64,000 bases of DNA from an uncultured bacterium (lineage in GTDB: Bacteria > Methylomirabilota > Methylomirabilia > Methylomirabilales > CSP1-5): positions 20,897-84,896 of the forward strand of contig CAZLDS010000004.1 of the NCBI GenBank assembly GCA_964558395.1. The letters are read 5' to 3'. Positions 1,601 through 43,871 of the stretch are shown piece by piece. The position numbers and the translations under genes were made by a program. The stretch's first letter is position 1. Every line of letters begins with the position of its first letter. The notes beneath the pieces are model-generated. The model was given only the letters and a program-made list of their open reading frames with translations. It was not told the origin of the DNA and did not search any database.

Positions 1601-1620
1601 GTGTCTCACCTCCGTGATAG

Positions 1621-1683: not shown

Positions 1684-1904
1684 TCGGAAAAGGGCAAAGA
1701 TTCCCGGAAATGTCTCTATCAATAATATAGCACCAGGGGCCGTTGTGGCCCGCCAGGGGCCTTTAGGCCATACAACACGCGCCCTTAGGGAGCCCGCCTA
1801 TGTGACCTTTCACACGGTCTGGCCTGTTCGCCGGGCTCATGGTTGGGGCAATGAAAAGGGAGGTTGGAGAGACGGGCTTTGGGGGGGATCGCCGGGTTTT
1901 GTGT

Positions 1905-2051: not shown

Positions 2052-2091
2052 TGTTCACTCCCCCCTGCGAGATATTCCCTTTCCCTCTACA

Positions 2092-2106
2092 GCAGGAGGT
2101 GTGCCA
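2092..2106 (-). promoter_or_regulatory. Sigma-54-like -24/-12 element upstream of the 48-aa ORF
   Basis: The minus strand reads TGGCACACCTCCTGC, compared with the consensus TGGCACG-N4-TTGC. The GG and GC are at the correct 10-nt spacing. It lies 41 nt upstream of the ATG at 2051, in non-coding DNA. Confidence 0.3.
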
Positions 2107-5288: not shown

Positions 5289-6971
<1,683 letters not shown>

Positions 6972-7021
6972 CGCTCACCTCGCTAGGTCCACAGGTAGGA
7001 GTAAAGCATACTGATCATCGC

Positions 7022-8452
7022 TCAATGCGTCTTTTTGAATTCCTGGAAAAGCTCACGATTATCTATGATCCGCCGCGCCTTGAACTCCGTCCGCGGCAAC
7101 TCTCCCGGTGCCGTCACTTGGACCACCGCCCTGACCCCGACGAGCGCCCTCAGCCGCTCCTCTATCTGCCGCTGGAGCTTTGGGAGGCACTCCGGGTCTT
7201 GCCGGGCGTTCCCTGCAACTCCCTCGTTGTATTCCGCCTGGACCACCAGCTCATCCATAACCTCTTGCCGAGAGACGATCATGCGGAACTCCTCGCCGAA
7301 GCCTTGGATGCTGCGCAGGACCTCCTCAACGGCAGCAGGATACACATTATGACCTCGGATGATCACCATATCATCGACGCGGCCATAGATCCCCTTGGGC
7401 AGCCGCGGATAGGTCCGACCACATTCGCATGGCTCATCGGTCCAGGTCGCGAGGTCACCTGACCAATACCGGATCATGGGTTGAGAGGTACGTTCCAGGT
7501 GGGTATAGACCGGAACCCCCTCTCCACCGAACGGGACGGGTTCCTTTGTCTCGGGATGGAGGAGCTCGCAGTAGACGATGTCCTGCCACAGATGCATCCC
7601 CTGGCGAAACTTGCATTCGCTGTTGGACATCCAGGGGGTCATCTCGCCCATGGAACCGCAGTCCAGGCACTTCGCCCCCCCATAGGCCGCCTCGATCCGG
7701 CGCCTGGTGGAGGGGATGCCTGCGCCGGGCTCCCCCGAGAAGAACATGGTCCTGAAGGCAAAGTCTCTTGCCGGATCGATCCCCTCTTGTCTTGCCACCT
7801 CGGCCAGGTACAGGGCGTAGGAAGGGGTTCCGTAGAAGGTGGTCGCTTTAAAATCCCGCATGAACCGGACCGCCATGACCGTCTGACCGGCGACCCCGGC
7901 CCCGAAAGGGAACGAGGTGAGGCCGAGCCGCTCGGCACCGACCAGAGCTCCCCAACTCCCGATATAGAGGCTAAAGAAGGATCCGATGAAGAGGCGATCC
8001 CCGGGCCGGAGCCCCATCCCCCACATCACCCGTGCGTGGGCATTGCCGATCCGTCGCCAGTCATCCCGTCCGATCCCATAGGCGGTGGCCTTGCCAGTCG
8101 TTCCGGAAGTCCCGTGGATCCGGAAGACCTCTTGGGAGGGAATGCAGAGATAGCTGCCGAAGGGGGGATTGACTGTCTGATCTTCTCGGATCTCTTGCTT
8201 GGTCAGGATGGGGACTCGGAGAAAGTCATCAAGGGACGTAATGTCTCCTGGCTCGAGTCCTGCCGCTTTCCACTTCCGCCTGTAGAGGGGGCCCTGGTCG
8301 TATGCATATTTCATCTGGGCCCGAACTCGCTTCAGGATGAAGCTCTGTCGCTTCTCCGAGTCCATGGTCTCCCGATCCCGGAACCAGTATTGCTCTCGAG
8401 GATCCGGCAGATAGCCGTCATCATAGTCCGGGGGCCACCCTTCCGCTTCCAT
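7022..8452 (-). CDS. Phenylacetate-CoA ligase (PaaK)-like AMP-forming acyl-CoA ligase
   Basis: 476 aa with the P-loop-like GTSGTTGKATAY motif and a PaaK-type N-terminus (ETMDSEKRQSFILKRVRAQMKYAYDQGPLYRRKWKAAG). Confidence 0.85.
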   Translation of the reverse strand: MEAEGWPPDYDDGYLPDPREQYWFRDRETMDSEKRQSFILKRVRAQMKYAYDQGPLYRRKWKAAGLEPGDITSLDDFLRVPILTKQEIREDQTVNPPFGSYLCIPSQEVFRIHGTSGTTGKATAYGIGRDDWRRIGNAHARVMWGMGLRPGDRLFIGSFFSLYIGSWGALVGAERLGLTSFPFGAGVAGQTVMAVRFMRDFKATTFYGTPSYALYLAEVARQEGIDPARDFAFRTMFFSGEPGAGIPSTRRRIEAAYGGAKCLDCGSMGEMTPWMSNSECKFRQGMHLWQDIVYCELLHPETKEPVPFGGEGVPVYTHLERTSQPMIRYWSGDLATWTDEPCECGRTYPRLPKGIYGRVDDMVIIRGHNVYPAAVEEVLRSIQGFGEEFRMIVSRQEVMDELVVQAEYNEGVAGNARQDPECLPKLQRQIEERLRALVGVRAVVQVTAPGELPRTEFKARRIIDNRELFQEFKKTH

Positions 8453-10382: not shown

Positions 10383-11750
10383 TCACGGTTCCTTTCTTCT
10401 TCCGGATAGTCTTGCATGCACCGCTTTCAGGATTCGTAAGACCCTCGCCCTGACGGGTGTGCGTCCCGGCTTCACGTGTGTTTCGATTTTTTCAATCTCC
10501 TCGCCGATCCGCACTTCCAGGGACGGAGATTTCTCGATCGCGAGTACTTGGGACGGGTAGACACTCCGATGGCCGGTCATCACGAAACTCACGACGCAGG
10601 CCACCGCGGCGTACGGGGCGATCCTCGGCCCAAAATACTCTACGGCCAACACACTCCCGGCAATCGGTGTATTCGCCGCTCCCGCCAAAAGGCTCACCAA
10701 GCCGATAGCCGCAAAGGTGGCGGTGTCCTCGCTCAAGATGTGGGCAATGGCCGTCCCCGCTGTTGCTCCCATGAAGAACATCGGCGTGACAATCCCGCCA
10801 CTGCCCCCAAAGCTGAGCGTGATGCTGGTAAAAATCGCCTTCAAGATGAAGGCATACCAAATGACGCTGCGCCCTTCTAAGGAAGCCTCAATCGTGTTCA
10901 GACCCAGCCCGAGATACTCTTGTGAGAAGAACAATGTCAGCACAATGATCAGCCCGCCACCAATCACCCCCTTCCACGGGGCCCAAATCGCCACGATGTC
11001 CGCAAGCTTCTTTGCCCATCGTAACGCCTCAATGAGAAGGACCGAACAGAGACCAAAGAAGACCCCCGCTACGAGGACCTTCAAGAAAAAGGCCTGCGTA
11101 AAGACCGGGACAAATTCAAGTGGGTGGTAAAAATAGGTAATCCCCAGTGATGAGGACACCTGGTAGCTGATAATTCCCGCCACAAAAGAGGGCAGAAGGA
11201 CGTCGTAGACAATGCTGCCCACAAAGAGCACTTCGACGCCAAAGATCGCCCCGGCGATTGGCGTGCCGAAGACCGAGGCAAAGCCGGCGCTAATGCCACA
11301 TATCACCAATTTTTTCCGATCGCGATCACCAAATCGAAATATATCGGCAAAGATCGAGGCAAGGCCCCCCCCGATTTGCGCACACGGGCCTTCTTTGCCG
11401 ACGGAACCCCCCAACGAGATCGTGAGGATCGTCGTCGCAAACTTGACCGGGACCGCCAACACCTCCATCTTGCCTGCCCGTTTGTGGACCACCTCAATCA
11501 CCCGCTCGGTCCCGTGGCCTTCCGCGGTCGGAGCAAGATAATGCGTCAGGATGACGCTGCAAAACAATGCGGCGGGCAGCAAGAGGAAAAAGTATGGGAC
11601 CTGACCCGTGAGCCAGGTGCTCCACTCCAAGGTTTTCAGGAACGCCGCCGTTGCCAAACCCACGATGGTGCCAATGATCGTTGCAAACACAAACCATCGG
11701 ATAATTTCAAAAAAAATGAGGGATTCTTCAGTGAATAATCGCGTCTTCAT
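10383..11750 (-). CDS. ClC family voltage-gated chloride channel / H+-Cl- antiporter
   Basis: 455 aa, polytopic. ClC selectivity-filter blocks are present: GSVGKEGP and GGSGGIVTPMFFMG. Confidence 0.9.
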   Translation of the reverse strand: MKTRLFTEESLIFFEIIRWFVFATIIGTIVGLATAAFLKTLEWSTWLTGQVPYFFLLLPAALFCSVILTHYLAPTAEGHGTERVIEVVHKRAGKMEVLAVPVKFATTILTISLGGSVGKEGPCAQIGGGLASIFADIFRFGDRDRKKLVICGISAGFASVFGTPIAGAIFGVEVLFVGSIVYDVLLPSFVAGIISYQVSSSLGITYFYHPLEFVPVFTQAFFLKVLVAGVFFGLCSVLLIEALRWAKKLADIVAIWAPWKGVIGGGLIIVLTLFFSQEYLGLGLNTIEASLEGRSVIWYAFILKAIFTSITLSFGGSGGIVTPMFFMGATAGTAIAHILSEDTATFAAIGLVSLLAGAANTPIAGSVLAVEYFGPRIAPYAAVACVVSFVMTGHRSVYPSQVLAIEKSPSLEVRIGEEIEKIETHVKPGRTPVRARVLRILKAVHARLSGRRKEP

Positions 11751-11765
11751 GGTATATATCTGACC

Positions 11766-12725
11766 TCATCGAGCCGAAAAGCCCTCGGTGTCGTGACCCC
11801 TCGGCGTGGTCTGCACGGCCAAGACCGGACACGGGGCCTTCCGGATCACCGCTGCCGCCACGCTCCCGAGGATGACGTGGGGGAGGCCGGTGCGGCCACG
11901 GGTGCCCATGACGATCAGGCCAGCCTGTTCGGTTTCGGCCTGGGCCACGATGACTTCGGTTGGTGCCCCGACCACGACCTTCCAATGAGCGCGCAGTCCT
12001 GTTGCCTCCGCTTCTCGCTGTCTGCGCCCGAGTTCTTGTTCGACGGTCGGAAAGGAACGCTGCACCTCGGCTTCTGGCAAGGGCCCCGGATGCTCAGCGA
12101 GGGCCTCGGCTATTTCGGGGGGCGAAACCGCGTGCAGGAGAACCATGTCCGCCTCAAAGACACCCGCCAAGGTCAGCGCATACTGCCAGGCGCCCTCGGA
12201 GACGGCAGATAGGTCAGTCGCCCAGAGAATACGTTTGACGCCGGTGAGTGGCCGCGCCCCCTGCCCAAGGCGGAGCGTGAGGACGGGAACGGACACCGTG
12301 CGGAGCACCGCCTGGGCGACGCTGCCGAGCAAGAGATGCGCGAGACCTCTGCGCCCGTGGGTCGCCATGAGGATGAGATCCGCCTGACTCTCTGCGGCCG
12401 CCCATCCGATCCCCGGCGTCGGGTCGCTGACTTTCACATGAAACCGGACGGTCAGCGACGGCCGGAGTTGTGCCGGCACGACGGTTTCAAACCACGTGCG
12501 GAGCCGGTCACGCACGTCATCCAAGACGTCCACCTGGGGCTTCCCCCGCTCCCGCCCGACCTCTTGGAGAAGCTCTAGCCCGGAAAAGGCATGGAACAGC
12601 ACGAGATCTGAGTGTGCCCGTGTCGCCAGCCGTGCAGCGAGCTCACACGCGGCCCCGGCGGGCGGGGAAAAGTCGGTCGGGACGAGAATGCGGGCGATAC
12701 GTGCTACGACACTCACATCCGTCAC
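11766..12725 (-). CDS. Tandem-domain universal stress protein (2 x UspA)
   Basis: 319 aa. Two USP modules each end in GxxGRxGLxHxLLGSV ([21 protein letters not shown] and [21 protein letters not shown]). Confidence 0.9.
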
Positions 12726-13682
12726 CTACGCGGCGATGCCATCGGTGCCTCGTTCCTTCGTTTGGCCATCTCGGCTGACCTTCACTGCCAGGACCGGACA
12801 GGGTGCCTTCCGGATTACCCCCGCCGCCACGCTTCCGAGGATGGCGTGCGAGAGGCCGGTTCGGCCATGCGTACCCATGATGATCAGATCGGCTTGCTCT
12901 GCCCGGGCATACCCCACGATGGCCTCGGTTGGAATTCCCACCACGACCTTCCGGCGGGCGCGCAATCGCAGGGCTTCGAGCGCCTGTTGTCGCCGCTCAA
13001 GTTCCTCCTCTATCCGTATGAAGTAATGCTCTACCCAGTGGACCGGCCGGGAGAGTGGATGATCAGCGACGGCGGCCACCTCGGTGGGTTGCACGGCGTG
13101 GAGCAGTACCACTTCGGCGCCAAAGACGCCCGCGAGAGTGACGGCGTACTGCCAGGCCCCCTCGGACACGGGGGACAGATCGGTCGCCCACAGAATCCGC
13201 CGGATCGCCGCGAGGTGGTGCTCCCCTTGCCCGAGCCGGAGCGCCAGGACGGGAACCGAAACAGTCCGGAGCACCGCCTCGGTGACGCTGCCCAGTAAGA
13301 GATGCGAGAGGCCGGTCCGCCCCCGGGTCGCCATCAGAACGAGGTCTGCCCCAGTGCGTCTCACCGCCCGCGCGATCCCCGGGATCGGTTCGCCAACCTT
13401 CACCCGGAAATCGACCGGCAGGAACCCGTGCAGTTCTGAGGGCACCCCAGCTTCGAACCACGTCTGCACCTGGGTCCGGGCGGCATTCAGGAACTCTACC
13501 TGCGTTCTCTTCCCCGGGCGCCGAACCTCGTGGAACAGCTCTGCCCTCGGGATGGCGTGGAAAATGACAAGGCCAGCCTTGAGGAAATTTGCCAACCGCG
13601 CGGCGAGGTGGCACGCAATCTGCGACGCGAGGGAATAGTCGGTGGGCAGAAGAATTCGGGTGATCTTCACTGTGGGATCCAT
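12726..13682 (-). CDS. Tandem-domain universal stress protein (2 x UspA), paralog of the 11766-12725 gene
   Basis: Same architecture as its neighbour. Long blocks are near-identical, for example [46 protein letters not shown]. Its stop codon abuts the next start codon. Confidence 0.9.
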   Translation of the reverse strand: MDPTVKITRILLPTDYSLASQIACHLAARLANFLKAGLVIFHAIPRAELFHEVRRPGKRTQVEFLNAARTQVQTWFEAGVPSELHGFLPVDFRVKVGEPIPGIARAVRRTGADLVLMATRGRTGLSHLLLGSVTEAVLRTVSVPVLALRLGQGEHHLAAIRRILWATDLSPVSEGAWQYAVTLAGVFGAEVVLLHAVQPTEVAAVADHPLSRPVHWVEHYFIRIEEELERRQQALEALRLRARRKVVVGIPTEAIVGYARAEQADLIIMGTHGRTGLSHAILGSVAAGVIRKAPCPVLAVKVSRDGQTKERGTDGIAA

Positions 13683-21553: not shown

Positions 21554-21582
21554 GAAAAACCACACACGTACACTCCTACGTG
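21554..21582 (-). terminator. Candidate intrinsic terminator of the ccdA / redoxin operon
   Basis: The minus strand reads CACGTA-GGAGTG-TACGTG, followed 4 nt later by GGTTTTTCG. It lies 36 nt after the TAG stop at 21618. Confidence 0.4.
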
Positions 21583-21617
21583 CAGGAAAGTTGCAGACCC
21601 GGACGCGCAAAGCCAGC

Positions 21618-22166
21618 CTATTCACCCAGGAGGTGTCCAATCATCGCCTCCATCTCGGCGTATCCTCCCTCACCGATACGCGTGTAACGGATGATCCCCT
21701 GCTTGTCAATGAGGTGAAGGGTAGGCCAGTATCGGGTGCGGTATCGGTTCCATGTGGCAAAGTCGTTGTCGAGGGCGACTGGATACGAGATCCCCAGCTC
21801 TTTGCAGGCTGATGTCACCTTGTCCAGCGGCTTTTCCCAACCAAACTCGGGTGAGTGGATGCCAATGATCGCGAGACCCTGAGGCCCGAATCGTTTATGC
21901 CAATCCACCAACTGGGGGATTGTGTTCCGACAGTTTATTCACCCGTAGGTCCAAAATTCCAGAAGGATAACCTTTCCGCGAAGATCGGCGAGGCGCACCG
22001 GTGCAGAATTGATCCACACCTGGTTGGTGAGCTCTGGGGCCCGCTGGCCGATCAGTGATGCTTCTACCCACGCCAGCGAGAGCCATACGATCCCCAGCGT
22101 GGTGACGATAATCCAAGGTTTGAAACGTCTTTGGGTTCTCATCGCTTGCGCTGACAACGGAATCAT
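21618..22166 (-). CDS. TlpA / DipZ-C-terminal-type thioredoxin-fold thiol:disulfide oxidoreductase; probable selenoprotein (UxxC) with in-frame TGA at 21941-21939
   Basis: ORFs 21939-22166 and 21618-21911 are in the same frame and are separated only by a TGA. Read-through gives LRGKVILLEFWTYG-U-INCRNTIPQLVDWHKRFGPQGLAIIGIHSPEF...YWPTLHLIDKQGIIRY, with the TGA exactly at the first Cys of the redox CxxC. There is an N-terminal signal anchor, and ccdA lies immediately upstream. Confidence 0.8.
21901..21922 (-). promoter_or_regulatory. Candidate bacterial SECIS hairpin for the redoxin UGA
   Basis: The mRNA CAAUCCCC-CAGUU-GG(U)GGAUUG starts 20 nt after the UGA. It has an 8-bp stem with a bulged U and GU in the apical loop, which lies about 28-32 nt from the UGA. 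Confidence 0.45.
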
Positions 22167-22240
22167 AATCTGTTGCTTCGCTTAACCCATATTAGGCCGG
22201 GCGGGCGAGAAGAGAAAGCCGGAAATCCTCTCGGGAGGTG

Positions 22241-22987
22241 TTAGAGACGCTGAAAGAGCCATTCAGGCGTGAAGTGCAGCGCGAAAGTCGAGAGGAGGGT
22301 GAAATAGTCCGTCAAAAGCAATACGCCCACTAGGATGAGCAAGAGACCGCTCCCGCGACTCACCCAGGGGAGCAGGCGCGTGAACCGACGGAAGAAGTAG
22401 AGGAACCGCTCAAAAAGCAGCGCGCTGAGAAAGAAAGGAATGGCGAGCCCCGCGGAGTAGGCCACGAGCAGGAGGATGCCCTGCCCGACGGTCTGGGAGG
22501 TGCTTGCCATGACCAGGATCGAACCGAGAATGGGGCCCACACACGGAATCCATCCGGCGGCAAAGGTCACGCCTACCAGGAAGGCCCCCAGGTAGCCACC
22601 GGGTTGGACCTTCAAGTCCACGTGTCTTTCTCGCATCAGGAACGGGAGGCTGAGCCATCCGGCGATGTGCAGCCCAAACAGAATAACCAACAGCCCACCG
22701 ATTTTGCGAATGACGAGCTGATAATCAAACAGGACCTGGCCGAGTGCGGTTGCTGAGGCCCCGAAGGCGATGAATATGCTCGAGAATCCAACAATAAAGG
22801 CCACGGAATGCGAGAGGAGAAGGCGTCGATTCTTGGCATGAGGAGCTGAGCCTTGCACCTCCTCCACGGAGAGACCACCTACGAAAGCGAGGTAGGAAGG
22901 GATGAGGGGAAAGACACAGGGCGAAAGGAACGAGAGCAGACCTGCCCCCATGGCTACCAAGACCGATACTTGCGCCGCCGCGCTCAT
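22241..22987 (-). CDS. ccdA: Cytochrome c biogenesis / thiol-reductant transfer membrane protein CcdA (DsbD core family)
   Basis: 248 aa with 6 or more TM segments. The two conserved membrane Cys motifs are present: LSPCVFPLIPSYL and WIPCVGPILGSIL. Confidence 0.9.
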   Translation of the reverse strand: MSAAAQVSVLVAMGAGLLSFLSPCVFPLIPSYLAFVGGLSVEEVQGSAPHAKNRRLLLSHSVAFIVGFSSIFIAFGASATALGQVLFDYQLVIRKIGGLLVILFGLHIAGWLSLPFLMRERHVDLKVQPGGYLGAFLVGVTFAAGWIPCVGPILGSILVMASTSQTVGQGILLLVAYSAGLAIPFFLSALLFERFLYFFRRFTRLLPWVSRGSGLLLILVGVLLLTDYFTLLSTFALHFTPEWLFQRL

Positions 22988-23034
22988 CTCTTGAAAAATC
23001 CTCCGTCGCTCCGCGTTTCTTTCTCCATCTGATC

Positions 23035-23086
23035 ATAGTAACGGCCGGGACGGCATTTGGCAACGGTCCCCCATCCCCTCGCTTCC
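23035..23086 (-). promoter_or_regulatory. Candidate promoter region of ccdA
   Basis: The minus strand has TTGCCA-17 nt-TACTAT (23063-23035). Overlapping it is GGAAG-N17-GTT (23086-23062), a weaker relative of the GGAAT-N18-GTT elements at 24.6-24.8 kb. Confidence 0.3.
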
Positions 23087-23186
23087 CCGCATGCCCACAA
23101 TCCCTCGGTGCCCGCGGCTCCCCACGCCGCCGTAACTTTCGGGTCGCGAGGAGGTGTCCTTCGGAGGACCGGCGTGCCAGGTCGAC

Positions 23187-24002
23187 TCAAGGGTGGCTGC
23201 CTTCGGAAAAGACGAGGGCACACTCGACGAGCTCGTCCCAGCCTACATCCGACACCAGCGCGTAAGTCATGTCCCCGCTATCCCAAAGGAGGATGTGTTT
23301 TCCCTGATACGCAGCGCTATAAAAGACCATACCCGATAGCTCCACCTTCTCGAGGCCCTCCAGCGAACCGCCATATCGCGGAAAGGCGAAGAGTGAGATG
23401 ATGTTTCGTCCCTTTTCGTACAGGATATACGCCGCCCGATGACCGGCCAGACGCGTGACCCGGCTACCGAGCAGCCGGATCCCCGCAGCGCTATAGTCCG
23501 GCACCCGGACGCGATGCCCGGTGCGCCCTTGAACCCAGACGGCCACCTGCTGGAGGTTCTCACTGGAAAGCTCTGTGGGGTTTTCGAGGGGGGCGAACTT
23601 CATGTGTTCCATGACCAGTTGAGCGACGAGCGGGTGAAGTGCGGGCGGCAAGCGGGGCGTCGCAATCAGATATCCGAGGAGTCCCCCGAGGAAGATGAGA
23701 AGCACCGAGGCGGCCAACGCCAACCACGACGCACGCCACCCCCAGCTCGACGTCCGAGCGGACCGCTTCCCTCCCTCGTCCAGCTCCCCAATCCTCGCTC
23801 GGAGCTTCTCCGCGACATGGGGCGGAACTGGTTCCTGAGAAACCGCCCTTCTGAGTTCTTCCCGGAATGCGTGTTCCGCCTCGACAGCCCGCTGGCAGGA
23901 AGGGCACTCCTGAAGATGCCCTTCGACCTCTAACGTCATCGAGGCGTTAAGTTCCCCGTCGCAATACGCTTGAAGAAACCGTGCAACCTCAGGACACCTC
24001 AT
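23187..24002 (-). CDS. Membrane-spanning anti-sigma factor with an N-terminal zinc-binding (zf-HC2 / ZAS-type HxxxCxxC) domain
   Basis: MRCPEVARFLQAYCDGELNASMTLEVEGHLQECPSCQ, then one TM segment (WLALAASVLLIFLGGLLGYLI) and an extracytoplasmic domain of about 160 aa. ATG 24002 is preceded by GGAGGA. It sits directly after the ECF sigma gene. Confidence 0.85.
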   Translation of the reverse strand: MRCPEVARFLQAYCDGELNASMTLEVEGHLQECPSCQRAVEAEHAFREELRRAVSQEPVPPHVAEKLRARIGELDEGGKRSARTSSWGWRASWLALAASVLLIFLGGLLGYLIATPRLPPALHPLVAQLVMEHMKFAPLENPTELSSENLQQVAVWVQGRTGHRVRVPDYSAAGIRLLGSRVTRLAGHRAAYILYEKGRNIISLFAFPRYGGSLEGLEKVELSGMVFYSAAYQGKHILLWDSGDMTYALVSDVGWDELVECALVFSEGSHP

Positions 24003-24018
24003 CCGTCCTCCTTCTAAC

Positions 24019-24567
24019 CTATTCGCTCTTCGTGTAGTCCTGAAGAGCGTCTCGCAACGCCTGCCGGCCACGGTACAGCCGCGACATCACGGTCCCGATG
24101 GGACACTGGGAGATCTCTGCGATCTCCCGATAGCTACAGCCCTCGAGATCCGCCAGGACCACCGTCAGGCGCAGCTTCGGCGGAAGGGCCGCGATGGCCC
24201 GCTGAATCTCCTCGCCCGTCAACCGGCGAATGAGATCGACCTCGGGAGCCCGGGACATCACGCTCCCGCGCTCCGCCTCCCGGTAGACTCGCTCCTCGTC
24301 AAAGTCGACTCCCTGCGCAGAGGCCTGCCGGATCCGATTAACAAAGAGATTGTGCAAGATGGCAAAGAGCCAAGCCCGACAATCGGTCCCCTGTTGGAAC
24401 TGATGGAAGAAGCGGTATGCCCTGAGGAACGTCTCTTGAAAAAGATCCTCCGCCTCGCTCTTATTTCGCGTGAGCCGCAGGGCCGCGTTGTATATTCGCT
24501 GCATATGGACCAGGGCAATCTCCTCAAATTCTTGCCGCCCTGGGTCTCCGCGATCGGGCCCCATCAC
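24019..24567 (-). CDS. ECF-type RNA polymerase sigma-70 family factor
   Basis: 182 aa. Region 2 (AEDLFQETFLRAYRFF ... WLFAILHNLFVNRIR) and region 4 (CSYREIAEISQCPIGTVMSRLYRGRQAL) are present. The start is GTG 24567 or ATG 24564. Confidence 0.9.
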   Translation of the reverse strand: MMGPDRGDPGRQEFEEIALVHMQRIYNAALRLTRNKSEAEDLFQETFLRAYRFFHQFQQGTDCRAWLFAILHNLFVNRIRQASAQGVDFDEERVYREAERGSVMSRAPEVDLIRRLTGEEIQRAIAALPPKLRLTVVLADLEGCSYREIAEISQCPIGTVMSRLYRGRQALRDALQDYTKSE

Positions 24568-24611
24568 CTGCTCCTGATGAAGGGGGAAAGGGCCCCATTC
24601 TCGTTCACGGG

Positions 24612-24638
24612 AACAGCCCCACCACCGAGAATATTCCC
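24612..24638 (-). promoter_or_regulatory. ECF (SigR/SigH-type) promoter candidate upstream of the ECF sigma gene
   Basis: The minus strand reads GGGAATA-N16-TGTT, i.e. GGAAT-N18-GTT. It ends 45 nt upstream of the sigma gene start. Confidence 0.5.
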
Positions 24639-24729
24639 TTTCCCAGAGAGATGCCCCTTCATCTTCAACAAATCCCCCGCAGCTGTCAACCGGATCGCCG
24701 ACCCCTCACGCGCCTTTTCGCCAAAATCA

Positions 24730-24756
24730 GGGAATAACATGCACCATCACCCTGTT
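24730..24756 (+). promoter_or_regulatory. ECF (SigR/SigH-type) promoter candidate upstream of the DUF3179 selenoprotein gene
   Basis: The plus strand reads GGGAATA-N16-TGTT, with identical hexamers and spacing to the divergent copy at 24612-24638. It ends about 60 nt upstream of ATG 24818. Confidence 0.5.
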
Positions 24757-24817
24757 GAACGCATATAAGAAGGACACTTGAGGGAGGGCAACGGAGAAAA
24801 GGGAGTTGGTTCTGGGT

Positions 24818-25894
24818 ATGAAGCAATATGTCTCGGCTGAACTGTCAGTCCTCGCACTTTTGTGGGTAATTCCTACTCTCGCTGGCCCCCTTCCTTATCA
24901 AGGCAGTCTGATCATCGACGGAGCCCCGGTGATCACCGTCCTCGGCAAAGATGCCATCCCGGCCACCAACCGGCCGGAGTTTATGTCGGTCCAGGAACCC
25001 AGTCCAGACTTCCGGGACGACGAACCGGTTCTGGGGGTACGGCGAGGCACGGTGGCCCGGGCCTATTCCCTCTGGCAACTAAACCACCACGAAATTGTCA
25101 ACGACCAGGTGGGAGATCTCCCACTCGCCATTACGTGGTGACCCCTCTGTTTCACGGGCATCGTGTATGTCCGACCAACATATCAGGGAAAACCACTCAC
25201 CTTCGGCGTCAGTGGGATGCTCTGGAAAGACGCCCTCGTCATGTATGATCGGGAGACCGAAACCCTGTGGAGCCACTTTAACGCCAGGGCCATCCACGGG
25301 ACGCTCCGGGGGACGGAGCTCAAACCTTACCCTGCGATTCACACAACATGGGGGGAGTGGAAGCAACTCTATCCCAATAGCAAGGTGCTGTCGAAAAGAG
25401 CGACGCTCGGGGGTATCAGAGGTCCCCATAACGTGTACGCCGGGTATATGGCCGACCCGAATCAGCTCGGGATCTTCGGGACGCGCAATCCGGACCACAC
25501 CCTGCCTGGAAAGGAGCACGTCTTTGGCCTCAAGTTCAAGGACGAGAGGGTGGCCTACCCGCTTCAATATCTGCGTCGCTCTCCGCTGGTCCATGACACG
25601 GTGGCTGGCGAACCGGTCCTCGTGGTGTTCATCGCCCGGGAAGCTACGGCAGTCGCCCTATCTCGTCATGTCGGGGGAAAGACCCTGGACTTCGCGCGTC
25701 TCCGTCAAACCGCAAGAAAATGGCTCATTGAGGATACGTTAACTGGGTCCAGATGGAGGGCACTGAATGGTGAAGCGATCGCTGGCCCACTGAAAGGGTC
25801 CCGCGTCACACCACTGCCAGGACACCAGGTCTTTTGGTTCGCGTGGAAGGGGTTCTACCCGCACACGCGTCTGTGGACCGGAAATAAACCTTGA
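24818..25894 (+). CDS. DUF3179 family exported protein; probable selenoprotein (U-P-L-C) with in-frame TGA at 25139-25141
   Basis: ORFs 24806-25141 and 25163-25894 share a frame. Read-through gives DEPVLGVRRGTVARAYSLWQLNHHEIVNDQVGDLPLAITW-U-PLCFTGIVYVRPTYQGKPLTFGVSGMLWKDALVMYDRETETLWSH, which matches DUF3179 blocks on both sides of the TGA. The TGA sits at the first Cys of the family CPLC motif. An N-terminal signal peptide is present. Confidence 0.8.
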
Positions 25895-26053: not shown

Positions 26054-26857
26054 ATGCATAGTCCAATCTCAGCCTTTGCAAAAGGGGCCTCCGCGTATCA
26101 GGAGTACCTTGAAAGCCCGCATGGGCGGCTCCGATTGGAGATTATCTGGCATCAATTGTCGGCCTTCATGGCGAAGGCATGGGGACCTAACCGAGAGCCC
26201 GTTCGGGTTCTCGACATCGGCTGTGGGACCGGAGAAGTCGCTCTGCGCCTGGCTGCTCAGGGCCATGCGGTCACCCTCCTCGACTCGGTGGCGGCCATGC
26301 TGGATCTCGCCAAAGACAAGCTACGGGAGAAAGCACCGCCGCCCATTGCGCCATGCTTTCTCCACGGATCCCTCGAAGAGGCGTCCGATCTGCTCGAAAA
26401 GCAAACCTTCGATCTTCTCCTGTGCCACACGGTTGTGGAATACCTCCCAAATCCGGAGAGCGCCCTGGGTCCGTTTCGCTCCCTTCTCAACCGAGGGGGA
26501 TTCCTCTCCCTGGTCACCCTGAATGATTGGCAAGCGCCAATCCGCCTGGCCGTCCGGGATCGTAAATTCGACCAGGCAAGGGACGCCCTCGCGGCCGAAG
26601 AACCCACAGATTCCCTCTTCGGCATTCCTCGCAAGCGGATGGTCACCCACGAATTGTGCACGCAACTCGAGGCGGTCGGGATCGAGGTGCTCAGTCATGA
26701 GGGCATCGTGGTCTTCGCAGATTATCTCCCATCCACGGTGCTCAAGGACACTTCTCACTTCGAATCCCTGCTCCGCCTCGAAGTAGAAGCCGCCACTCGT
26801 TCTCCCTTCAAAGAGGTAGCTCGGTACTTCCATCTCTGGGGCAGGCGGACCGGATAA
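26054..26857 (+). CDS. Class I SAM-dependent methyltransferase, SmtA/CmoM-like
   Basis: SAM motif I VLDIGCGTGEVALRLA. The overall layout resembles E. coli SmtA/CmoM (LLCHTVVEYLPNPESAL ... RGGFLSLVTLN ... ARYFHLWGRR). Confidence 0.8.
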   Translation: MHSPISAFAKGASAYQEYLESPHGRLRLEIIWHQLSAFMAKAWGPNREPVRVLDIGCGTGEVALRLAAQGHAVTLLDSVAAMLDLAKDKLREKAPPPIAPCFLHGSLEEASDLLEKQTFDLLLCHTVVEYLPNPESALGPFRSLLNRGGFLSLVTLNDWQAPIRLAVRDRKFDQARDALAAEEPTDSLFGIPRKRMVTHELCTQLEAVGIEVLSHEGIVVFADYLPSTVLKDTSHFESLLRLEVEAATRSPFKEVARYFHLWGRRTG

Positions 26858-26872
26858 TCAGTTGGACTGCGG

Positions 26873-27550
26873 ATGGGAATCACGGTTATTATTCCGGCAC
26901 TCAATGAAGAAGAGGCAATCGGCACGGTCGTGACCGAAGTCCCCCGCGACCTCGCGAGTGAGATTATCGTTGTAGATAACGGCAGCACGGATCGGACGGC
27001 GGACATGGCCAGCGCGGCCGGCGCGAAGGTGATTCGCGAGCCGATGCGAGGGTACGGGGCGGCCTGTCTCGCAGGAGCGATGGCGGCTCACAATGATATC
27101 CTCGTCTTCTTGGACGGTGATCGGAGCGACGATCCGCAAGAAATGCCGGTTGTTCTTGCTCCCCTTCTGGACGGACAAGCTGATCTGGTCATCGGATCGC
27201 GTACGGCGGGCTTCACCGAGAAAGGAGCGCTGACGTCGCAACAGCGGTTCGGGAACCAACTCGTCACCTGCGTCGTTCGACTCCTGTACGGCATTACCCT
27301 GACTGACATCGGTCCCTTTCGAGCCATCCGGGCGTCAGTCCTGCGAGATCTCGGCATGGAGCACAAGACCTATGGATGGCCTGTGGAGATGGTCGTTAAG
27401 GCAGCCAAGAAAGGCTACCGCGTTATGAATGTTCCGGTCAGCTGTCGGAAGAGAATCGGCGTCTCAAAGGTGGCGGGGACGATGAAAGGCAGCATCCTGG
27501 CGGGCTATCATCTACTGTCGACCACTGTGCGATATGCCTGGAGGAGATAG
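26873..27550 (+). CDS. Family 2 glycosyltransferase (dolichyl/polyprenyl-phosphate sugar synthase-like)
   Basis: ITVIIPALNEEEAI ... VVDNGSTDRT ... VFLDGDRSDDP (DxD motif). Confidence 0.85.
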   Translation: MGITVIIPALNEEEAIGTVVTEVPRDLASEIIVVDNGSTDRTADMASAAGAKVIREPMRGYGAACLAGAMAAHNDILVFLDGDRSDDPQEMPVVLAPLLDGQADLVIGSRTAGFTEKGALTSQQRFGNQLVTCVVRLLYGITLTDIGPFRAIRASVLRDLGMEHKTYGWPVEMVVKAAKKGYRVMNVPVSCRKRIGVSKVAGTMKGSILAGYHLLSTTVRYAWRR

Positions 27551-27554
27551 CGCG

Positions 27555-28547
27555 ATGGCATACTCCGTTGGCATCGGTCTCACGAACGAATGCAATTTAC
27601 GATGTCCCCATTGCTACCGCCCCGATATGGTGATCGAGCGTCTCACGTTCCGGGAGGTGCAGGAGGTCTGCGAGAGCATTCCGATCCGATCGATGAACCT
27701 CGGCGTGGGAGAGAATGGACTCCACCCGGAATATCAAGCCATCCTCGATTATGTCTGGACGCAGGGCATCAAGACGACCATCACCTCGAACGGACTCAGT
27801 ATTCAGGCACTCTCGGACAAGCACGTTAAGCGCTTTCATAGCGTGGAGTTTTCCCTGGACTTCCCCACCGAGCGGGAGCACGACGCCTTTCGGGGGACAG
27901 GGAACTGGCGCGGCGTCATGGAGGCGATCGCGCGGTGTGCCGACATCGGCCTCTCGGTCACGGTGACTTCGGTCATGATGAGCATCAATTACGAGAAACT
28001 GGGCGATCTCGCCAAGGTGGCCGCCTCGGTCGGGGCCAACCTCCGAGTGAACATCTATCAACCCGCAAAGACGGATCAGTTTACGCTGAGGTACGAGCAA
28101 TTCTGGGAAGGATTCAGGCGCCTCTTGGGCGACACACGCCTGGTCGCCACCACCGAGCCTGTCTTAGCCGGAGTCCTGGGACTGGACGGGTTCGACGGTC
28201 CGGCGTGTGGCCGTTCCACGGTTCGGGTGGCCCCCGACGGTCGAATCCTTCCCTGCACGTACTGGCCGAAGAGTCGTCTGACCCTTGCCGACCTGAAAGC
28301 CCTCGGCGAAGACATCGTGCAGGCACCGGAGTTCCTCGAGGCCCGGCAGGTTCCCCCAGCGTGCGCGGGGTGTCCGTGTCGGGGTGGCTGCGCGGGCAGG
28401 CGCGCCGTGCTCGGTAACCTCCATGGATCTGATCCCTACTGCCCCTTTGTGAGGGGTGATCGACTCATGATCGAATGGGAGCAGGCAACAGGGCAGGATC
28501 TCCCCAAGGTGGGAAGCGCCTGCACCACGGTCGTGTCAGCACTGTAG
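27555..28547 (+). CDS. Radical SAM enzyme with a C-terminal SPASM/twitch-type Cys cluster
   Basis: CNLRCPHCY is the CxxxCxxC motif. C-terminal ACGRSTVRVAPDGRILPC ... CAGCPCRGGCAGRR. ATG 27555 is preceded by GGAGGAGA. Confidence 0.85.
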   Translation: MAYSVGIGLTNECNLRCPHCYRPDMVIERLTFREVQEVCESIPIRSMNLGVGENGLHPEYQAILDYVWTQGIKTTITSNGLSIQALSDKHVKRFHSVEFSLDFPTEREHDAFRGTGNWRGVMEAIARCADIGLSVTVTSVMMSINYEKLGDLAKVAASVGANLRVNIYQPAKTDQFTLRYEQFWEGFRRLLGDTRLVATTEPVLAGVLGLDGFDGPACGRSTVRVAPDGRILPCTYWPKSRLTLADLKALGEDIVQAPEFLEARQVPPACAGCPCRGGCAGRRAVLGNLHGSDPYCPFVRGDRLMIEWEQATGQDLPKVGSACTTVVSAL

Positions 28548-28577
28548 AGGCGTTTCGCGAGCGATGAGGACTGAGCG

Positions 28578-29597
28578 ATGAGCGATGAGATGAACCACTC
28601 GAAGCGTCTTCCGGTCGCGGCCGAATTACCCCGCACCCTCTATCTGGAGACGACCAATCGCTGTAACTCGAAATGCCAGACGTGCGTCCGGACTTTTCTC
28701 ACCCTTGAGCCGCCCAAGGACCTCACCCTGGCCGAGCTGAAGAGCATCGTGGACCAATTCCCAGTCTTGGAACGGGTCGTTCTCCACGGGGTTGGCGAGC
28801 CGCTGTTGAATCGAGAGCTTTTCGAAATGATCGCATACGTGAAGGCCCGGGGCGCAACGGTCCTGTTCAACTCCGATGCCATCAGCCTCACCCCAAAGCG
28901 CGCCCAACAGCTCATCGACAGCCGCCTGGATGAATTGCGCGTCTCCATGGACGGGGCGACCCGCGAAACGTATGACAAAATTCGCGGCGTTGACCAGTTC
29001 GACCGGGTCGTGGGAAATGTCAGTCATCTGCTCGACCTGCAGCGGAAGCTCAAGAGAGAGACCCCCCGCGTCTCCCTCTGGTTTACCGCCATGAAGGCCA
29101 ATCTCCATGAGCTCCCGGCATTCGTGCGACTGGCCGCCAGGATTGGAGTCCCGGAGGTCTACGTCCAGCGCCTCGTATATAACGGCCACGGGATCGCTGT
29201 GGCCGACCAGTCGCTTCACCGGGCGATGCACGAGCGGGAGCAAAAGTTGATCGCAGAGGCAGATGAGTTAGCGCGGACTTTCCAAATCGCCTTCAAGGCC
29301 TCAGGCTTGACCACGCCCATGGAAAGTCTCCAAGGAACGGAACTCGGTAAACGGCCCTGGTCCGGCTGCCACCGTCCCTGGACGCTGAGCTACGTAACGG
29401 CAAACGGCAACGTGCTCCCCTGCTGCCTCGCCCCTTGGACGGCGAAAAACTACCGGGGGGCCCTCTTGGGCAATGCCTTCACGGACGATTTTTCGCGCAT
29501 CTGGAACGGGGAACAATACCGGCAGTTCAGAGAGACGTTCGAGAGCGACGTCCCTCCAGATCCCTGCCACGGGTGCGGACTGCTCTGGAGTTATTAA
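28578..29597 (+). CDS. Radical SAM / SPASM domain protein
   Basis: TNRCNSKCQTCV is the CxxxCxxC motif. C-terminal CHRPWTLSYVTANGNVLPCC ... IWNGEQYRQFR ... DPCHGC. Confidence 0.85.
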   Translation: MSDEMNHSKRLPVAAELPRTLYLETTNRCNSKCQTCVRTFLTLEPPKDLTLAELKSIVDQFPVLERVVLHGVGEPLLNRELFEMIAYVKARGATVLFNSDAISLTPKRAQQLIDSRLDELRVSMDGATRETYDKIRGVDQFDRVVGNVSHLLDLQRKLKRETPRVSLWFTAMKANLHELPAFVRLAARIGVPEVYVQRLVYNGHGIAVADQSLHRAMHEREQKLIAEADELARTFQIAFKASGLTTPMESLQGTELGKRPWSGCHRPWTLSYVTANGNVLPCCLAPWTAKNYRGALLGNAFTDDFSRIWNGEQYRQFRETFESDVPPDPCHGCGLLWSY

Positions 29598-29614
29598 GGC
29601 CCAAGGAGGCAAGG

Positions 29615-30148
29615 ATGAACCTTGGACAAGAAGGTTCCACGCATATCAGTCCCTCGGTGTCCCTGGGACTGTTTCGCATGGGATTCGGCATCCTCTACCT
29701 GCACGCGGCCTGGCAAAAAGCTCCCTGGGTGATCAACGATGGGCAGCGGTTCGGGTGGCTCTACGGCTGGATCTGGCAAGAGATCAACCACCCAACCTTC
29801 GGCTGGTATAAGGCCTTCCTGCAGAAGGTCGTCCTCCCGAACTTCACCTTCTTCGGTTACATGAGCTTTCTAACGGAGGTCGCACTCGGGCTCTCGTTCC
29901 TCTTTGGGCTCTTTACGGTGCTCGGGGGTATCGGCGGGGCGTTATGGCAGCTGAACATCGCCCTGGGCAGCTACTCGGTACCCGGCGAATGGGGCTGGAT
30001 CTGGTTTCTCCTCATCGTCCCCCATTTGGTCTTTGCCCAGAGCCGGGCGGGACGCACTCTGGGAATAGACTGGCTGCTCTGGAACCAGCTGTCTCGAGTT
30101 CAGCGCCGACGCTCAGCACTCGGAAAGCTACTCCTTCGGCTTGTCTAA
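29615..30148 (+). CDS. DoxX-like small polytopic membrane protein
   Basis: 177 aa with 4 TM segments. ATG 29615 is preceded by AAGGAGG. The family call is from overall layout only. Confidence 0.55.
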   Translation: MNLGQEGSTHISPSVSLGLFRMGFGILYLHAAWQKAPWVINDGQRFGWLYGWIWQEINHPTFGWYKAFLQKVVLPNFTFFGYMSFLTEVALGLSFLFGLFTVLGGIGGALWQLNIALGSYSVPGEWGWIWFLLIVPHLVFAQSRAGRTLGIDWLLWNQLSRVQRRRSALGKLLLRLV

Positions 30149-30158
30149 GGAGGTACTC

Positions 30159-31529
30159 ATGGCCTGGAGGAGCCCCTCCTTTCTTCTGCTGGTCGGTGGG
30201 GGGATCGCATCGGCGTTTTTATACCTCCTGAATTTTGACATCATTCCTTTGGTCCAACATCTTGGGCTCATCGGTCCCCACCAAGATGCACTTGCCGTAT
30301 ATCCTATCCTGTTTTTTCTGCTCTTTGCCCTGTACCTGCTTGCTGTCGCCGTCATCTTCCGAAAGCGCTCCGAGCCTCACTCTGTGGGTGTGATCCTCGG
30401 ATTCGCTTTACTCTTTCGGGTCGCCCTCCTTGTTTCCCCTCCGGCCCTCTCGAGCGATGTGTACCGGTACGTCTGGGACGGTCGGGTTCAGACGGCCGGG
30501 ATCAGCCCGTACCTGTATGCCCCGTCGGCCCAAGAGCTGGCCCCGCTTCGAGACGAGGAAATCTTTCCGCACATCAATCGGCGGGATGTCCCCACCATTT
30601 ATCCGCCCGGCGCGCAGATGCTCTTGGCCTCCAGCGCTGTTTTCTTCCCAGACAGTGTCACGGGTCTGAAACTCATCATGATCTTGTTCGACATCGGGAC
30701 CATCTTCCTGATCCTTCGTGTCTTGAAAAAGACCGGAATCCGGACGGATCGGGTCGTGCTCTACGCGTGGTCTCCCCTCGTGATCTTTGAGGTAGCCGGA
30801 AGCGGCCATCTCGAGGCCGTGATGCTCCCGTTCGTCCTTCTCGCCCTCCTGGCCAGGATGGACGAAAGGCCGCTCCTCGCCGGCACGGCGCTTGGAGTCG
30901 CCACGTTGATCAAACTGTACCCGGCAGTCCTCTTTCCGGCCCTCTACAAGCGGCGAGAGAGGATGTTTCCCCTGGCCTTTGGCGCGACAATCCTGCTTGG
31001 ATACCTCCCATACCTCTATGGTGCCGGGGATCGCGTACTGGGATTCTTGCCAGCCTACTTCGGCCCCTGGGAGGACTTTAACGTCGGGCTCCGCTATTTT
31101 GTCACTTCCGCGTTGGCGACCCTCACCCCCTCGCCTCGCCCCATCGCCATGCTCCTCGTCACGGCCCTTCTTAGCGCGGTAGCCGTGTATATTCTCCGTC
31201 AAAGACAAGATGAAGCGTTCCTGTGGCACGGATACCTGATGGTGAGTGCCTATTTACTTTTTCTGCCGACGAGTTTTCATCCGTGGTACCTCATTTGGAT
31301 TCTCCCTTTTCTCTGTCTCTATCCCTCGTGGGGATGGCTCTATCTCAGCGGGGCCATTGGACTCTCCTACCTGAAATATGTCCAGGGGGGGCCCATTGTC
31401 CCCCTCGGCATTCGACTTGTGGAGTTCGTCCCCCTGTACGTGTTGCTCAGCATCGAGGCCGTCCGCCATCGTCGCCTGCATCTCGGTCCACGTGAAACCA
31501 TGACGCTCATGATGGAGAAACCGCAATGA
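30159..31529 (+). CDS. Polytopic GT-C-type glycosyltransferase (DUF2029 / GT87 / PIG-V-like mannosyltransferase family)
   Basis: About 456 aa with 10 or more TM segments. The first-loop motif LSSDVYRYVWDGRVQTAGISPYLYAP is typical of polyprenyl-phosphate-sugar-dependent GT-C enzymes. AAGGAGG RBS upstream. Confidence 0.7.
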   Translation: MAWRSPSFLLLVGGGIASAFLYLLNFDIIPLVQHLGLIGPHQDALAVYPILFFLLFALYLLAVAVIFRKRSEPHSVGVILGFALLFRVALLVSPPALSSDVYRYVWDGRVQTAGISPYLYAPSAQELAPLRDEEIFPHINRRDVPTIYPPGAQMLLASSAVFFPDSVTGLKLIMILFDIGTIFLILRVLKKTGIRTDRVVLYAWSPLVIFEVAGSGHLEAVMLPFVLLALLARMDERPLLAGTALGVATLIKLYPAVLFPALYKRRERMFPLAFGATILLGYLPYLYGAGDRVLGFLPAYFGPWEDFNVGLRYFVTSALATLTPSPRPIAMLLVTALLSAVAVYILRQRQDEAFLWHGYLMVSAYLLFLPTSFHPWYLIWILPFLCLYPSWGWLYLSGAIGLSYLKYVQGGPIVPLGIRLVEFVPLYVLLSIEAVRHRRLHLGPRETMTLMMEKPQ

Positions 31530-41550: not shown

Positions 41551-42291
41551 ATGACATCGAACGCAAGGGACGAATCGGCCCCAGCGCACCCGCAGCCGGC
41601 CGAGAACGCGCAGGAAAATCGGCGTGATTGGTGGCGGCCGGTCGCGCTCTTGGCCGCGATTCTAGCGGCGCTCGCTTTGACCCGGGCCCTTGGTATTGGG
41701 GAACGGCTGGTCAATCTCAGGGACTGGATTCAAAGTTTGGGTCCCTGGGGGCCGGTCGTCTTCACCGTCCTCTACGTCGCCGCCACGGTGGCGGCCGTTC
41801 CCGGCTCGGTCATGACCGTGGCAGCCGGAGCCCTCTTTGGGTCCGTGCTCGGGGTCATCGTGGTGATCAACGCGGCGACACTCGGGGCCGGCCTTGCGTT
41901 CGTGATTGCCCGGTACTTCGCCCGGGACGCCGTTGCCCGGTCGTTTGCCGGCAACGAGAAATTCCAAAAACTGGATCGCCTCACCGAAGAACACGGGGCA
42001 ATCATCGTCGCCCTTACCCGGCTTATACCCGTCTTCCCCTTCAATCTCCTCAATTATGGTTTCGGCCTCACCCGAGTCCCGTTCTGGACGTATGTCATCT
42101 GGTCCTGGCTCTGCATGCTGCCTGTGACGATCCTTCTTGTCGTCGGGGCAGACGCATTCACCAAAGGCGTCACCCAAGGCCAGGTCCCCTGGCTCCTGAT
42201 CGGTACGTTTGCCGCGACAGCGTTGATCTTAACATTGCTAGTTCGACATGCACGCCGCACACTGAAGGCGAAGGAAAGAAAGGCCAAATGA
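41551..42291 (+). CDS. DedA / TVP38-TMEM64 (SNARE-associated) family membrane protein
   Basis: VFTVLYVAATVAAVPGSVMTVAAGALFG ... RLIPVFPFNLLNYGFGLT are the characteristic re-entrant-loop motifs. Confidence 0.85.
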   Translation: MTSNARDESAPAHPQPAENAQENRRDWWRPVALLAAILAALALTRALGIGERLVNLRDWIQSLGPWGPVVFTVLYVAATVAAVPGSVMTVAAGALFGSVLGVIVVINAATLGAGLAFVIARYFARDAVARSFAGNEKFQKLDRLTEEHGAIIVALTRLIPVFPFNLLNYGFGLTRVPFWTYVIWSWLCMLPVTILLVVGADAFTKGVTQGQVPWLLIGTFAATALILTLLVRHARRTLKAKERKAK

Positions 42292-42301
42292 GAGTAAAGG
42301 G

Positions 42302-43843: not shown

Positions 43844-43871
43844 CGTCCCCCAGAGACGACGAGGCCAAGAG

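Follow-up and report, generated by a model that had tools for sequence, protein, structure and literature searches.

In Mycobacterium tuberculosis DipZ (Rv2874), a membrane domain like CcdA and a thioredoxin (Trx) domain like that of TlpA form one fused protein (PDB 2HYX, 5CYY), and System II cytochrome c maturation follows the same transmembrane electron logic with a membrane CcdA and an exported thioredoxin-fold CxxC protein, ResA or TlpA. The actinobacterial SigH–RshA and SigR–RsrA pairs combine an extracytoplasmic function (ECF) sigma factor with a soluble H-x3-C-x2-C anti-sigma factor; their GGAAT-N18-GTT promoters include one before the sigma gene, and their regulons contain thiol-disulfide reductase genes, those for cytoplasmic Trx and thioredoxin reductase. 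Selenocysteine (Sec, U) has been tabulated in reviews for DUF3179 proteins (UxxC/T) as well as for UxxC redoxin or thiol:disulfide selenoproteins (PMC9312934, PMC13188914). Here we analyse a locus at positions 21618-25894 of a 64-kb window (the whole stretch of DNA analysed, from contig CAZLDS010000004.1 of an uncultured NC10, or Methylomirabilota, bacterium) in which counterparts of all of these lie together: a SigH/SigR-like ECF sigma factor, a membrane-anchored zinc-associated anti-sigma factor (ZAS), CcdA, a DipZ-type redoxin and, divergently, a DUF3179 protein, the last two each with an in-frame UGA.

Four of the five genes are on the minus strand; DUF3179 is on the plus strand, and 250 bp separate it from the start of sigma. 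Each had been named in an earlier sequence-only reading of the window, and open reading frames (ORFs) with Pfam and NCBIfam matches confirmed them all (Table 1). Our reading, which we think fairly probable, is of an ECF stress regulon that is specific to this clade and has two selenoprotein arms, a Sec form of the DipZ reductase and Sec-DUF3179. Like DipZ, the redoxin has the FW-x-Y-x-C-I-N-C context and aligns over the whole Trx domain; unlike DipZ, the pair is encoded by two genes, carries Sec where DipZ has its N-terminal active-site Cys, is joined to an ECF sigma operon and lacks DipZ's C-terminal carbohydrate-binding-like domain, the redoxin ending after the Trx domain. With the SigH and SigR systems the locus shares a sigma factor whose best match is SigH_actino, GGAAT-N18-GTT promoters (one of them before sigma), an H-x3-C-x2-C anti-sigma factor and, as predicted here, thiol-disulfide reductase genes in the regulon. 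It departs from them in its NC10 host, in sigma and anti-sigma scores that fall below the model cut-offs, in the predicted regulon genes, which encode envelope selenoproteins, and in the anti-sigma factor itself: next to its zinc motif (HLQECPSC) this has one hydrophobic, transmembrane (TM) span and a predicted extracytoplasmic C-terminal domain of about 150 aa. From System II it differs in the DipZ type of the redoxin, in Sec, in the predicted ECF control and in having no ResB/ResC genes alongside. The DUF3179 protein is no different from the catalogued selenoprotein (same PF11376, Sec position and motif); what our comparisons add is a wide spread of Sec, a covarying Sec insertion sequence (SECIS), a U-P-L-A-H subtype and recurrent ECF, mer-type and 'arsenosugar' neighbourhoods. 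As both kinds of selenoprotein are already in the reviews cited above, what is new is that a split DipZ has Sec, that it is attached to a SigH-like ECF operon and that this sigma is linked to DUF3179 at the promoter level.

Selenocysteine decoding of the two UGA genes

Relatives' DUF3179, sigma, ccdA or redoxin loci are labelled with L-numbers (L001 etc.). Such relatives place the source of the window in Methylomirabilota/NC10. The DUF3179 comparisons used a sample of 80 genome loci from a scan with one genome per species, and the sigma-factor comparison set came from a metagenome scan with the ECF sigma factor as query.

The PF11376 match of the DUF3179 protein takes in all 292 positions of the profile (277.3 bits, cut-off 27; E=2e-82) and spans the TGA. 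Its U aligns with C108, the first Cys of the family CxxC, within a CPLC motif that is invariant among the Cys forms. At the aligned site we found TGA in 79 of 86 copies, TGT or TGC in 7 and TAA or TAG in none, a TGA:Cys ratio that is not family-wide because the sample was ranked by similarity to the Sec form. TGA forms occur in NC10, Acidobacteriota, Chloroflexota, Marinimicrobia, Bacteroidota, Bacillota and one Woeseiaceae metagenome-assembled genome (MAG), and protein conservation runs on both sides of the TGA across several phyla. The hairpin that follows the UGA (7 bp, loop CGUGU or CGGGU) was paired in 98.9% of cells, compared with 16-55% for slid controls. Compensatory changes were seen at three pairs (65 cells), and none of 500 shuffles reached this. 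We conclude from codon conservation and covariation that the DUF3179 TGA is a genuine Sec codon with a covarying SECIS. Sec-DUF3179 was reportedly first described by Zhang and Gladyshev in 2007.

Five clade members have the redoxin gene (the window, L003, L004, L088 and L153), and every one of them has TGA at the site. The core of the downstream hairpin, AUCCCCCAGUUGGUGGAU, is invariant in these five orthologues, and flanking synonymous sites vary. Because the core is invariant there is no covariation to assess, and we regard the hairpin as suggestive of a SECIS. Close redoxin relatives are annotated as fragments of 100-106 aa, which mark Sec forms; farther homologues, of 170-200 aa, are Cys forms. 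Judged by this pattern of codons, the redoxin TGA is also a genuine Sec codon.

If the TGA marked a pseudogene or a sequencing artefact in one gene or in both, this would fit the way gene callers split the two. Such a reading would also agree with the 64-kb window, which holds no selA, selB, selC or selD; a tRNA scan of the window found no tRNA, so no tRNA-Sec, and Rfam over its whole length gave no match at all, to a SECIS family or any other. Minimum free energy folding z-scores after each UGA were not significant alone, and the hairpins are convincing through the comparative data only. Against this, the site is always TGA or a Cys codon and never TAA or TAG, and the protein is conserved on both flanks; the covarying hairpin, the full-length Pfam match across the stop and the standing of Sec-DUF3179 as a catalogued selenoprotein family argue against it as well, and we consider it extremely improbable. 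The sequence-only reading had taken both UGA genes for selenoproteins, which the conserved TGA codons and downstream hairpins bear out. It had also argued that the co-location of the two genes spoke against chance pseudogenisation. Pseudogenes are indeed effectively excluded, by TGA conservation and the hairpins; two Sec genes within 4 kb are less telling, because a Methylomirabilota MAG has been reported with 63 predicted selenoproteins and NC10 is known as selenoprotein-rich.

Hydrophobic N-terminal segments, which we read as predicted export signals, are visible by eye in both UGA proteins, and an AlphaFold2 (AF2) model of a DUF3179 homologue has an N-terminal helix at residues 8-23. Exact look-up returned no record for the window DUF3179 fragment, and the window CcdA turned up on a 2.9-kb Logan contig only. 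A motif scan also pointed to TGA 11766 on the minus strand (window 10383-12728) as a third Sec candidate. We rejected it, because this TGA simply terminates a gene for a tandem universal stress protein (Usp), and the ClC channel gene that comes next in frame has a start of its own.

The ccdA–redoxin pair and its sigma operon

The 182-residue redoxin matched the Trx domain of DipZ with E=4e-43 (query residues 43-181, residues 57-199 of the 352-residue DipZ chain), and its U aligns with the first Cys of the DipZ C-I-N-C. Since the redoxin is encoded directly after the CcdA gene, 74 nt apart and as a separate gene, the pair corresponds to the two DipZ modules. Both conserved TM Cys are visible in CcdA (LSPCVFP, WIPCVGP). 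On the strength of the DipZ match and the common C-I-N-C context we read ccdA and the redoxin gene as a split DipZ with Sec in place of the attacking Cys, and a transmembrane electron relay formed by the two proteins is plausible.

Ordinary System II cytochrome c maturation, in which CcdA and a ResA-like redoxin would act apart from both stress and DUF3179, has some points in its favour: the CcdA clade goes under the name 'cytochrome c biogenesis protein' in its sources, ResA models match the redoxin weakly (58.6 for NF002854, below its cut-off of 170), and the divergent operon of L004 holds c-type cytochromes. We nevertheless find it quite unlikely. The E value of about 1e-12 against ResA structures contrasts with that against DipZ, and no ResB/CcsA genes are present in the operon, which ends at a terminator-like site before a gene for a sigma-54 activator. 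Moreover, ccdA and the redoxin gene are fused to the ECF sigma operon or linked with it by a promoter. CcdA orthologues at 77-88% identity were found in this NC10 clade only, and other NC10 genomes carry a different CcdA, the nearest outside the clade at 61-63% identity, in an HtrA/M16 protease context.

Two redoxin variants were seen on the way. The L153 orthologue (about 2216) reads U-I-N-S for U-I-N-C and has lost the resolving Cys. In a Binatia MAG (L169, 2501-4569), the genes after a Sec DipZ-type redoxin are Oxidored_molyb and Ferric_reduct, which together resemble MsrP/MsrQ, and there is no CcdA in the vicinity. DipZ-type redoxin homologues elsewhere stand alone, lie beside MsrP/MsrQ-like genes or occur in other contexts. 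A literature search for CcdA or DipZ with selenoproteins, or for DipZ with SigH, gave no relevant paper.

Upstream of the split DipZ, the anti-sigma gene likely begins at an internal ATG 17 nt past the sigma stop, and the gene call in L002 uses the same ATG. The motif GGAAY-N18-GTT has three matches in the 64 kb, and two of them lie back to back in the 250-bp spacer between sigma and DUF3179, one facing each gene, both correctly oriented and at a suitable distance from the start codon. Their boxes equal the experimentally defined SigH consensus of C. glutamicum, GGAAT-N18-19-GTT (PMC10012870). Both promoters are kept in L003, L004, L009, L088, L090, L091, L093 and L094, and one of the two in L092. 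In an alignment of nine spacer sequences with a mean identity of 54%, the columns without variation are concentrated in the GGAATA and GTT boxes, and the promoter spacers differ. A further island between the promoters does not vary among nine relatives; as its reverse complement contains TTGACA, it may be an operator or else serve basal transcription as a promoter or sigma-70 –35 box.

On the other flank, ccdA follows the anti-sigma gene by 35-199 nt with no terminator between them in the window, L088, L093 and L153, the gap being 35-95 nt in the three relatives. In L003, L004, L009 and L089 a terminator follows the anti-sigma gene, and GGAAC-N18-GTT then stands ahead of ccdA. The sigma-70-like element upstream of ccdA is also kept in L003, L004 and L009. 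Between anti-sigma and ccdA, L009 (about 1390-1860, minus strand), L004 (about 1640-2100, minus strand) and probably L089 have a small Cys-rich ORF, with a strong terminator and GGAAC-N18-GTT upstream. Its product, about 91 aa long, contains two CxxC-like pairs and has no Pfam hit; the ORF looks degraded in L003, and the whole segment is deleted in the window.

The SigH-type promoters, together with the fusion of ccdA to the sigma operon or its own GGAAC-N18-GTT, support the earlier proposal of sigma as common regulator: from these motifs, sigma probably controls both flanks, DUF3179 on one side and the sigma operon with ccdA on the other. The 'disulfide-stress-type control' assumed in the sequence-only reading does not follow, as HxxxCxxC alone does not imply it and the anti-sigma factor is membrane-anchored, unlike soluble RsrA and RshA. 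Alternatively, the genes might be adjacent by shared ancestry, the DUF3179-facing motif being a chance or vestigial match and sigma regulating itself and perhaps ccdA and the redoxin gene. The clade is narrow (sigma 71-84% identical), so that conservation may reflect short divergence time; the motif has eight specified bases and occurs in the window at chance level; and in L088 and L094, where DUF3179 is missing, the same divergent promoter faces the methyltransferase, GT2 and radical SAM genes that follow DUF3179 in the window. Against this stand the boxes that stay invariant while the spacers between them differ, the right orientation and start-codon distance of both, and an adjacency of DUF3179 and ECF sigma genes that occurs independently in other phyla. 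We judge this alternative unlikely.

Table 1. Coordinates of genes, Sec codons and regulatory elements at the locus, in window positions
Feature	Position	Strand	Evidence or remark
Exported (predicted) DipZ-type redoxin selenoprotein	21618-22166	-	Pfam AhpC-TSA/Redoxin; W-T-Y-G-U-I-N-C
Redoxin Sec codon TGA	21939-21941	-	FWTYG-U-INC
Redoxin candidate SECIS hairpin, AGUU loop	21901-21922	-	centroid fold; 20-41 nt after U of UGA
Terminator-like hairpin and T-run past the redoxin stop	21563-21584	-	
CcdA (DsbD_TM)	22241-22987	-	PF02683, 54.8 bits
Sigma-70-like promoter TTGCCA-17-TACTAT upstream of ccdA	23035-23063	-	
Membrane-anchored ZAS anti-sigma factor	23187-24071	-	zf-HC2, 34.8 bits (Pfam); likely start ATG 24002
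ECF sigma factor, SigH/SigR-like	24019-24567	-	Sigma70_r2 and r4_2 (Pfam); start GTG 24567 or ATG 24564
ECF-type promoter GGAATA-N17-GTT facing the sigma gene (putative autoregulation)	24612-24637	-	motif match
Conserved island CATCTTC...TGTCAACCG between both ECF promoters	24660-24692	.	invariant alignment columns
ECF-type promoter GGAATA-N17-GTT facing DUF3179, 62 nt before ATG	24731-24756	+	motif match
Exported (predicted) DUF3179 selenoprotein	24818-25894	+	PF11376; W-U-P-L-C; alternative start TTG 24806
DUF3179 Sec codon TGA	25139-25141	+	ITW-U-PLC
DUF3179 SECIS hairpin, 7-bp stem, CGUGU loop	25155-25173	+	17-35 nt after UGA; covariation

DUF3179 and its neighbourhoods

The sequence-only reading suggested one dedicated relay, in which electrons would pass from the cytoplasm to CcdA, on to the Sec-redoxin and from there to a substrate that may be DUF3179 or its target. 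On this model the Sec-redoxin would serve to keep the selenol/thiol site of DUF3179 reduced. The genes are co-located in the window and its two closest relatives, L003 and L009, and share ECF-type promoters, both selenoproteins look exported and have U-x-x-C, and a reduced U/C-x-x-C site in an oxidising envelope needs a reductant. Against this, CcdA lay within 6 kb of DUF3179 in those three of the 80 genome loci only (the sigma operon of L004 lies 6.3 kb off), and a redoxin in just two further loci. Among 405 neighbour ORFs within 2.5 kb of DUF3179, Pfam assigned about 3 to DsbD_TM and 7-9 to AhpC-TSA. The NC10 Sec-DUF3179 loci L001, L005, L006 and L007 have neither ccdA nor a redoxin gene, and DipZ-type redoxins elsewhere are not beside DUF3179. 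Even inside the clade the gene sets come and go independently: L091 has DUF3179, sigma and anti-sigma with no ccdA or redoxin, whereas L088 and L094 have the sigma operon without DUF3179, in L088 together with ccdA and the redoxin gene. An apparent CcdA beside DUF3179 in L012 proved to be a 45-residue fragment, the true neighbours being MerT and HMA genes, and an 'AhpD-like' 100-aa ORF in L094 was dropped because Pfam did not confirm it.

With no recurring synteny to ccdA and with independent gain and loss inside the clade, the proposal of DUF3179 as a client of CcdA and the redoxin is not supported, and we hold the dedicated relay to be improbable. A lack of such synteny is the very outcome that the sequence-only reading had named as refuting its relay. 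The five genes thus do not make up a conserved relay; to judge by the promoter motifs, DUF3179 probably shares its regulation with the split DipZ, of which it is not an obligate client.

Other associations of DUF3179 recur across phyla. Its flanks show an enrichment of ECF sigma genes close by: the stretches within 1.5 kb make up 18% of the flank sequence and hold 6 of the 9 matches (binomial P=0.002), at L006, L029, L037, L039, L044 and L077. In a soil lineage (L146-L152), a Cys-form DUF3179 is found with a cupredoxin, a sigma gene and an anti-sigma gene, the last homologous over its full length. MerT and HMA genes follow DUF3179 in L012, and MerR, an HMA P-type ATPase and MerT are near it in L001. 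A VTT/DedA gene adjoins DUF3179 in L001, L004, L006, L007, L022, L037 and L091, in most cases together with an FAD oxidoreductase that resembles MerA; in L001, L004, L006, L007 and L037 there are also 'arsenosugar' glycosyltransferases (TIGR04283/TIGR04282) or ArsS. Because of these cross-phylum ECF, mer-type and 'arsenosugar' neighbourhoods, a role of DUF3179 in thiophilic metal(loid) or redox chemistry, not linked to CcdA, appears likely. A literature search for DUF3179 with ECF sigma factors found no paper.

A PDB sequence search with the DUF3179 profile returned noise only and no solved relative. For an AF2 model of a Cys homologue (pLDDT, the predicted local distance difference test score, 89), Foldseek gave local Rieske-ferredoxin-like matches with a probability of 0.9-0.99 and E about 0.1, a weak lead only. 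Second high-scoring segment pairs in the homologue search are signs of an internal duplication in DUF3179. Six loci (L011, L019, L029, L037, L039 and L044) have a W-U-P-L-A-H-T subtype, a Sec form without the second Cys and with His two residues further on; four of them (L029, L037, L039 and L044) adjoin an ECF sigma gene, and a zf-HC2 anti-sigma gene is also present in L029 and L037.

Further neighbours were recorded in the window and in relatives. Window 26054-31526, after DUF3179, encodes a methyltransferase, GT2, two radical SAM/SPASM proteins, a DoxD-like protein, GT87 and a further GT2, a set of envelope-modification type that may be co-transcribed from the divergent ECF promoter. About 16 kb downstream of DUF3179 on the same strand (window 41599-44522) are genes for a VTT/DedA protein, an FAD oxidoreductase resembling MerA and a glycosyltransferase of the TIGR04282 type, the last 71% identical to that of L004; the trio, or its VTT member alone, directly follows DUF3179 in L004 and L091. 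L004 also has, at 6738-7836, two predicted exported ORFs of tandem Cys-rich NPCAA(K) repeats, for which Pfam gave only the low-complexity 'Cornifin'; they lie past the divergent ECF promoter and before DUF3179, between c-type cytochromes and an FGE-sulfatase-domain gene. In 11 Dehalococcoidia loci (e.g. L051 13743-14702 and L042 14994-15947) an AIR-synthase-family gene, SelD-like by eye and matched by Pfam AIRS/AIRS_C, is found 3-4 kb from Sec-DUF3179, which probably reflects lineage gene order.

A probable two-armed ECF regulon and its meaning

In the regulon that we favour, the SigH/SigR-like sigma factor would be autoregulated and held by the membrane ZAS anti-sigma factor, and its release would lead to transcription from GGAAT-N18-GTT promoters. 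Transcription from the sigma-side promoter would run past the sigma and anti-sigma genes and on into ccdA and the redoxin gene, the sigma-70-like promoter supplying basal ccdA expression. CcdA would then move reducing equivalents from cytoplasmic thioredoxin across the membrane via its two TM cysteines, and the exported Sec-redoxin (U-I-N-C) would accept them and reduce envelope targets. The divergent promoter would drive Sec-DUF3179 and probably the envelope-modification genes behind it. The most likely task of DUF3179 itself would be to deal, in the envelope, with a thiophilic metal(loid) or a redox substrate. What we observe is the identity of the genes, the signals for Sec decoding and the conservation of the promoter motifs; from them we infer the electron flow, the sigma dependence in vivo and the chemistry of DUF3179.

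Several observations weigh against this regulon. The three motif matches in the window equal the chance expectation of 3.6, and the argument for a regulon thus rests on position, orientation and conservation in fairly close relatives; the promoters are motif matches. Sigma scores 158.5 bits against TIGR02947 (SigH_actino), its best NCBIfam match, below the cut-off of 251.55. The anti-sigma factor falls below the cut-offs of NF052375 and RsrA-type models (TIGR03988, 43.3 versus 62.5), and its architecture is not RsrA-like. ECF control of ccdA may be partial, because the sigma-70-like ccdA promoter is conserved and terminators follow the anti-sigma gene in relatives. On the side of DUF3179, metal(loid) contexts are a minority (about 10-15 of the 80 loci), and the commonest neighbour families, RecF, SIR2, HAD and APRT, are lineage-specific housekeeping genes of Dehalococcoidia. 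Foldseek gave no match to the AF2 model at E<0.001, the best being E=0.08.

A bolder version of this regulon, to which we assign a rather small chance, is a selenium-based envelope defence. The sigma/ZAS pair would sense thiophilic stress, that is, soft metals, metalloids or oxidants, and co-induce Sec-DipZ and Sec-DUF3179; DUF3179 would bind or reduce the toxicant at its selenol-thiol site, and Sec-DipZ would recycle DUF3179. If true, a function would be assigned to DUF3179 for the first time, and a selenol-to-selenol relay across a bacterial envelope would likewise be a first.

DUF3179 is a large and widespread family without known function that is very often a selenoprotein, and our comparisons offer three handles on it: an operon that it heads behind a SigH-type ECF promoter in this NC10 clade, ECF sigma/anti-sigma pairs beside it in other phyla, and mer-type, cupredoxin, MerA-like, VTT and 'arsenosugar' neighbours. 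The Sec version of DipZ amounts to a natural experiment on why Sec should stand in for the attacking Cys of an envelope reductant. Without amounting to a field-level change, these results narrow the hypotheses for the orphan DUF3179 and for the unusually large selenoproteome of NC10.

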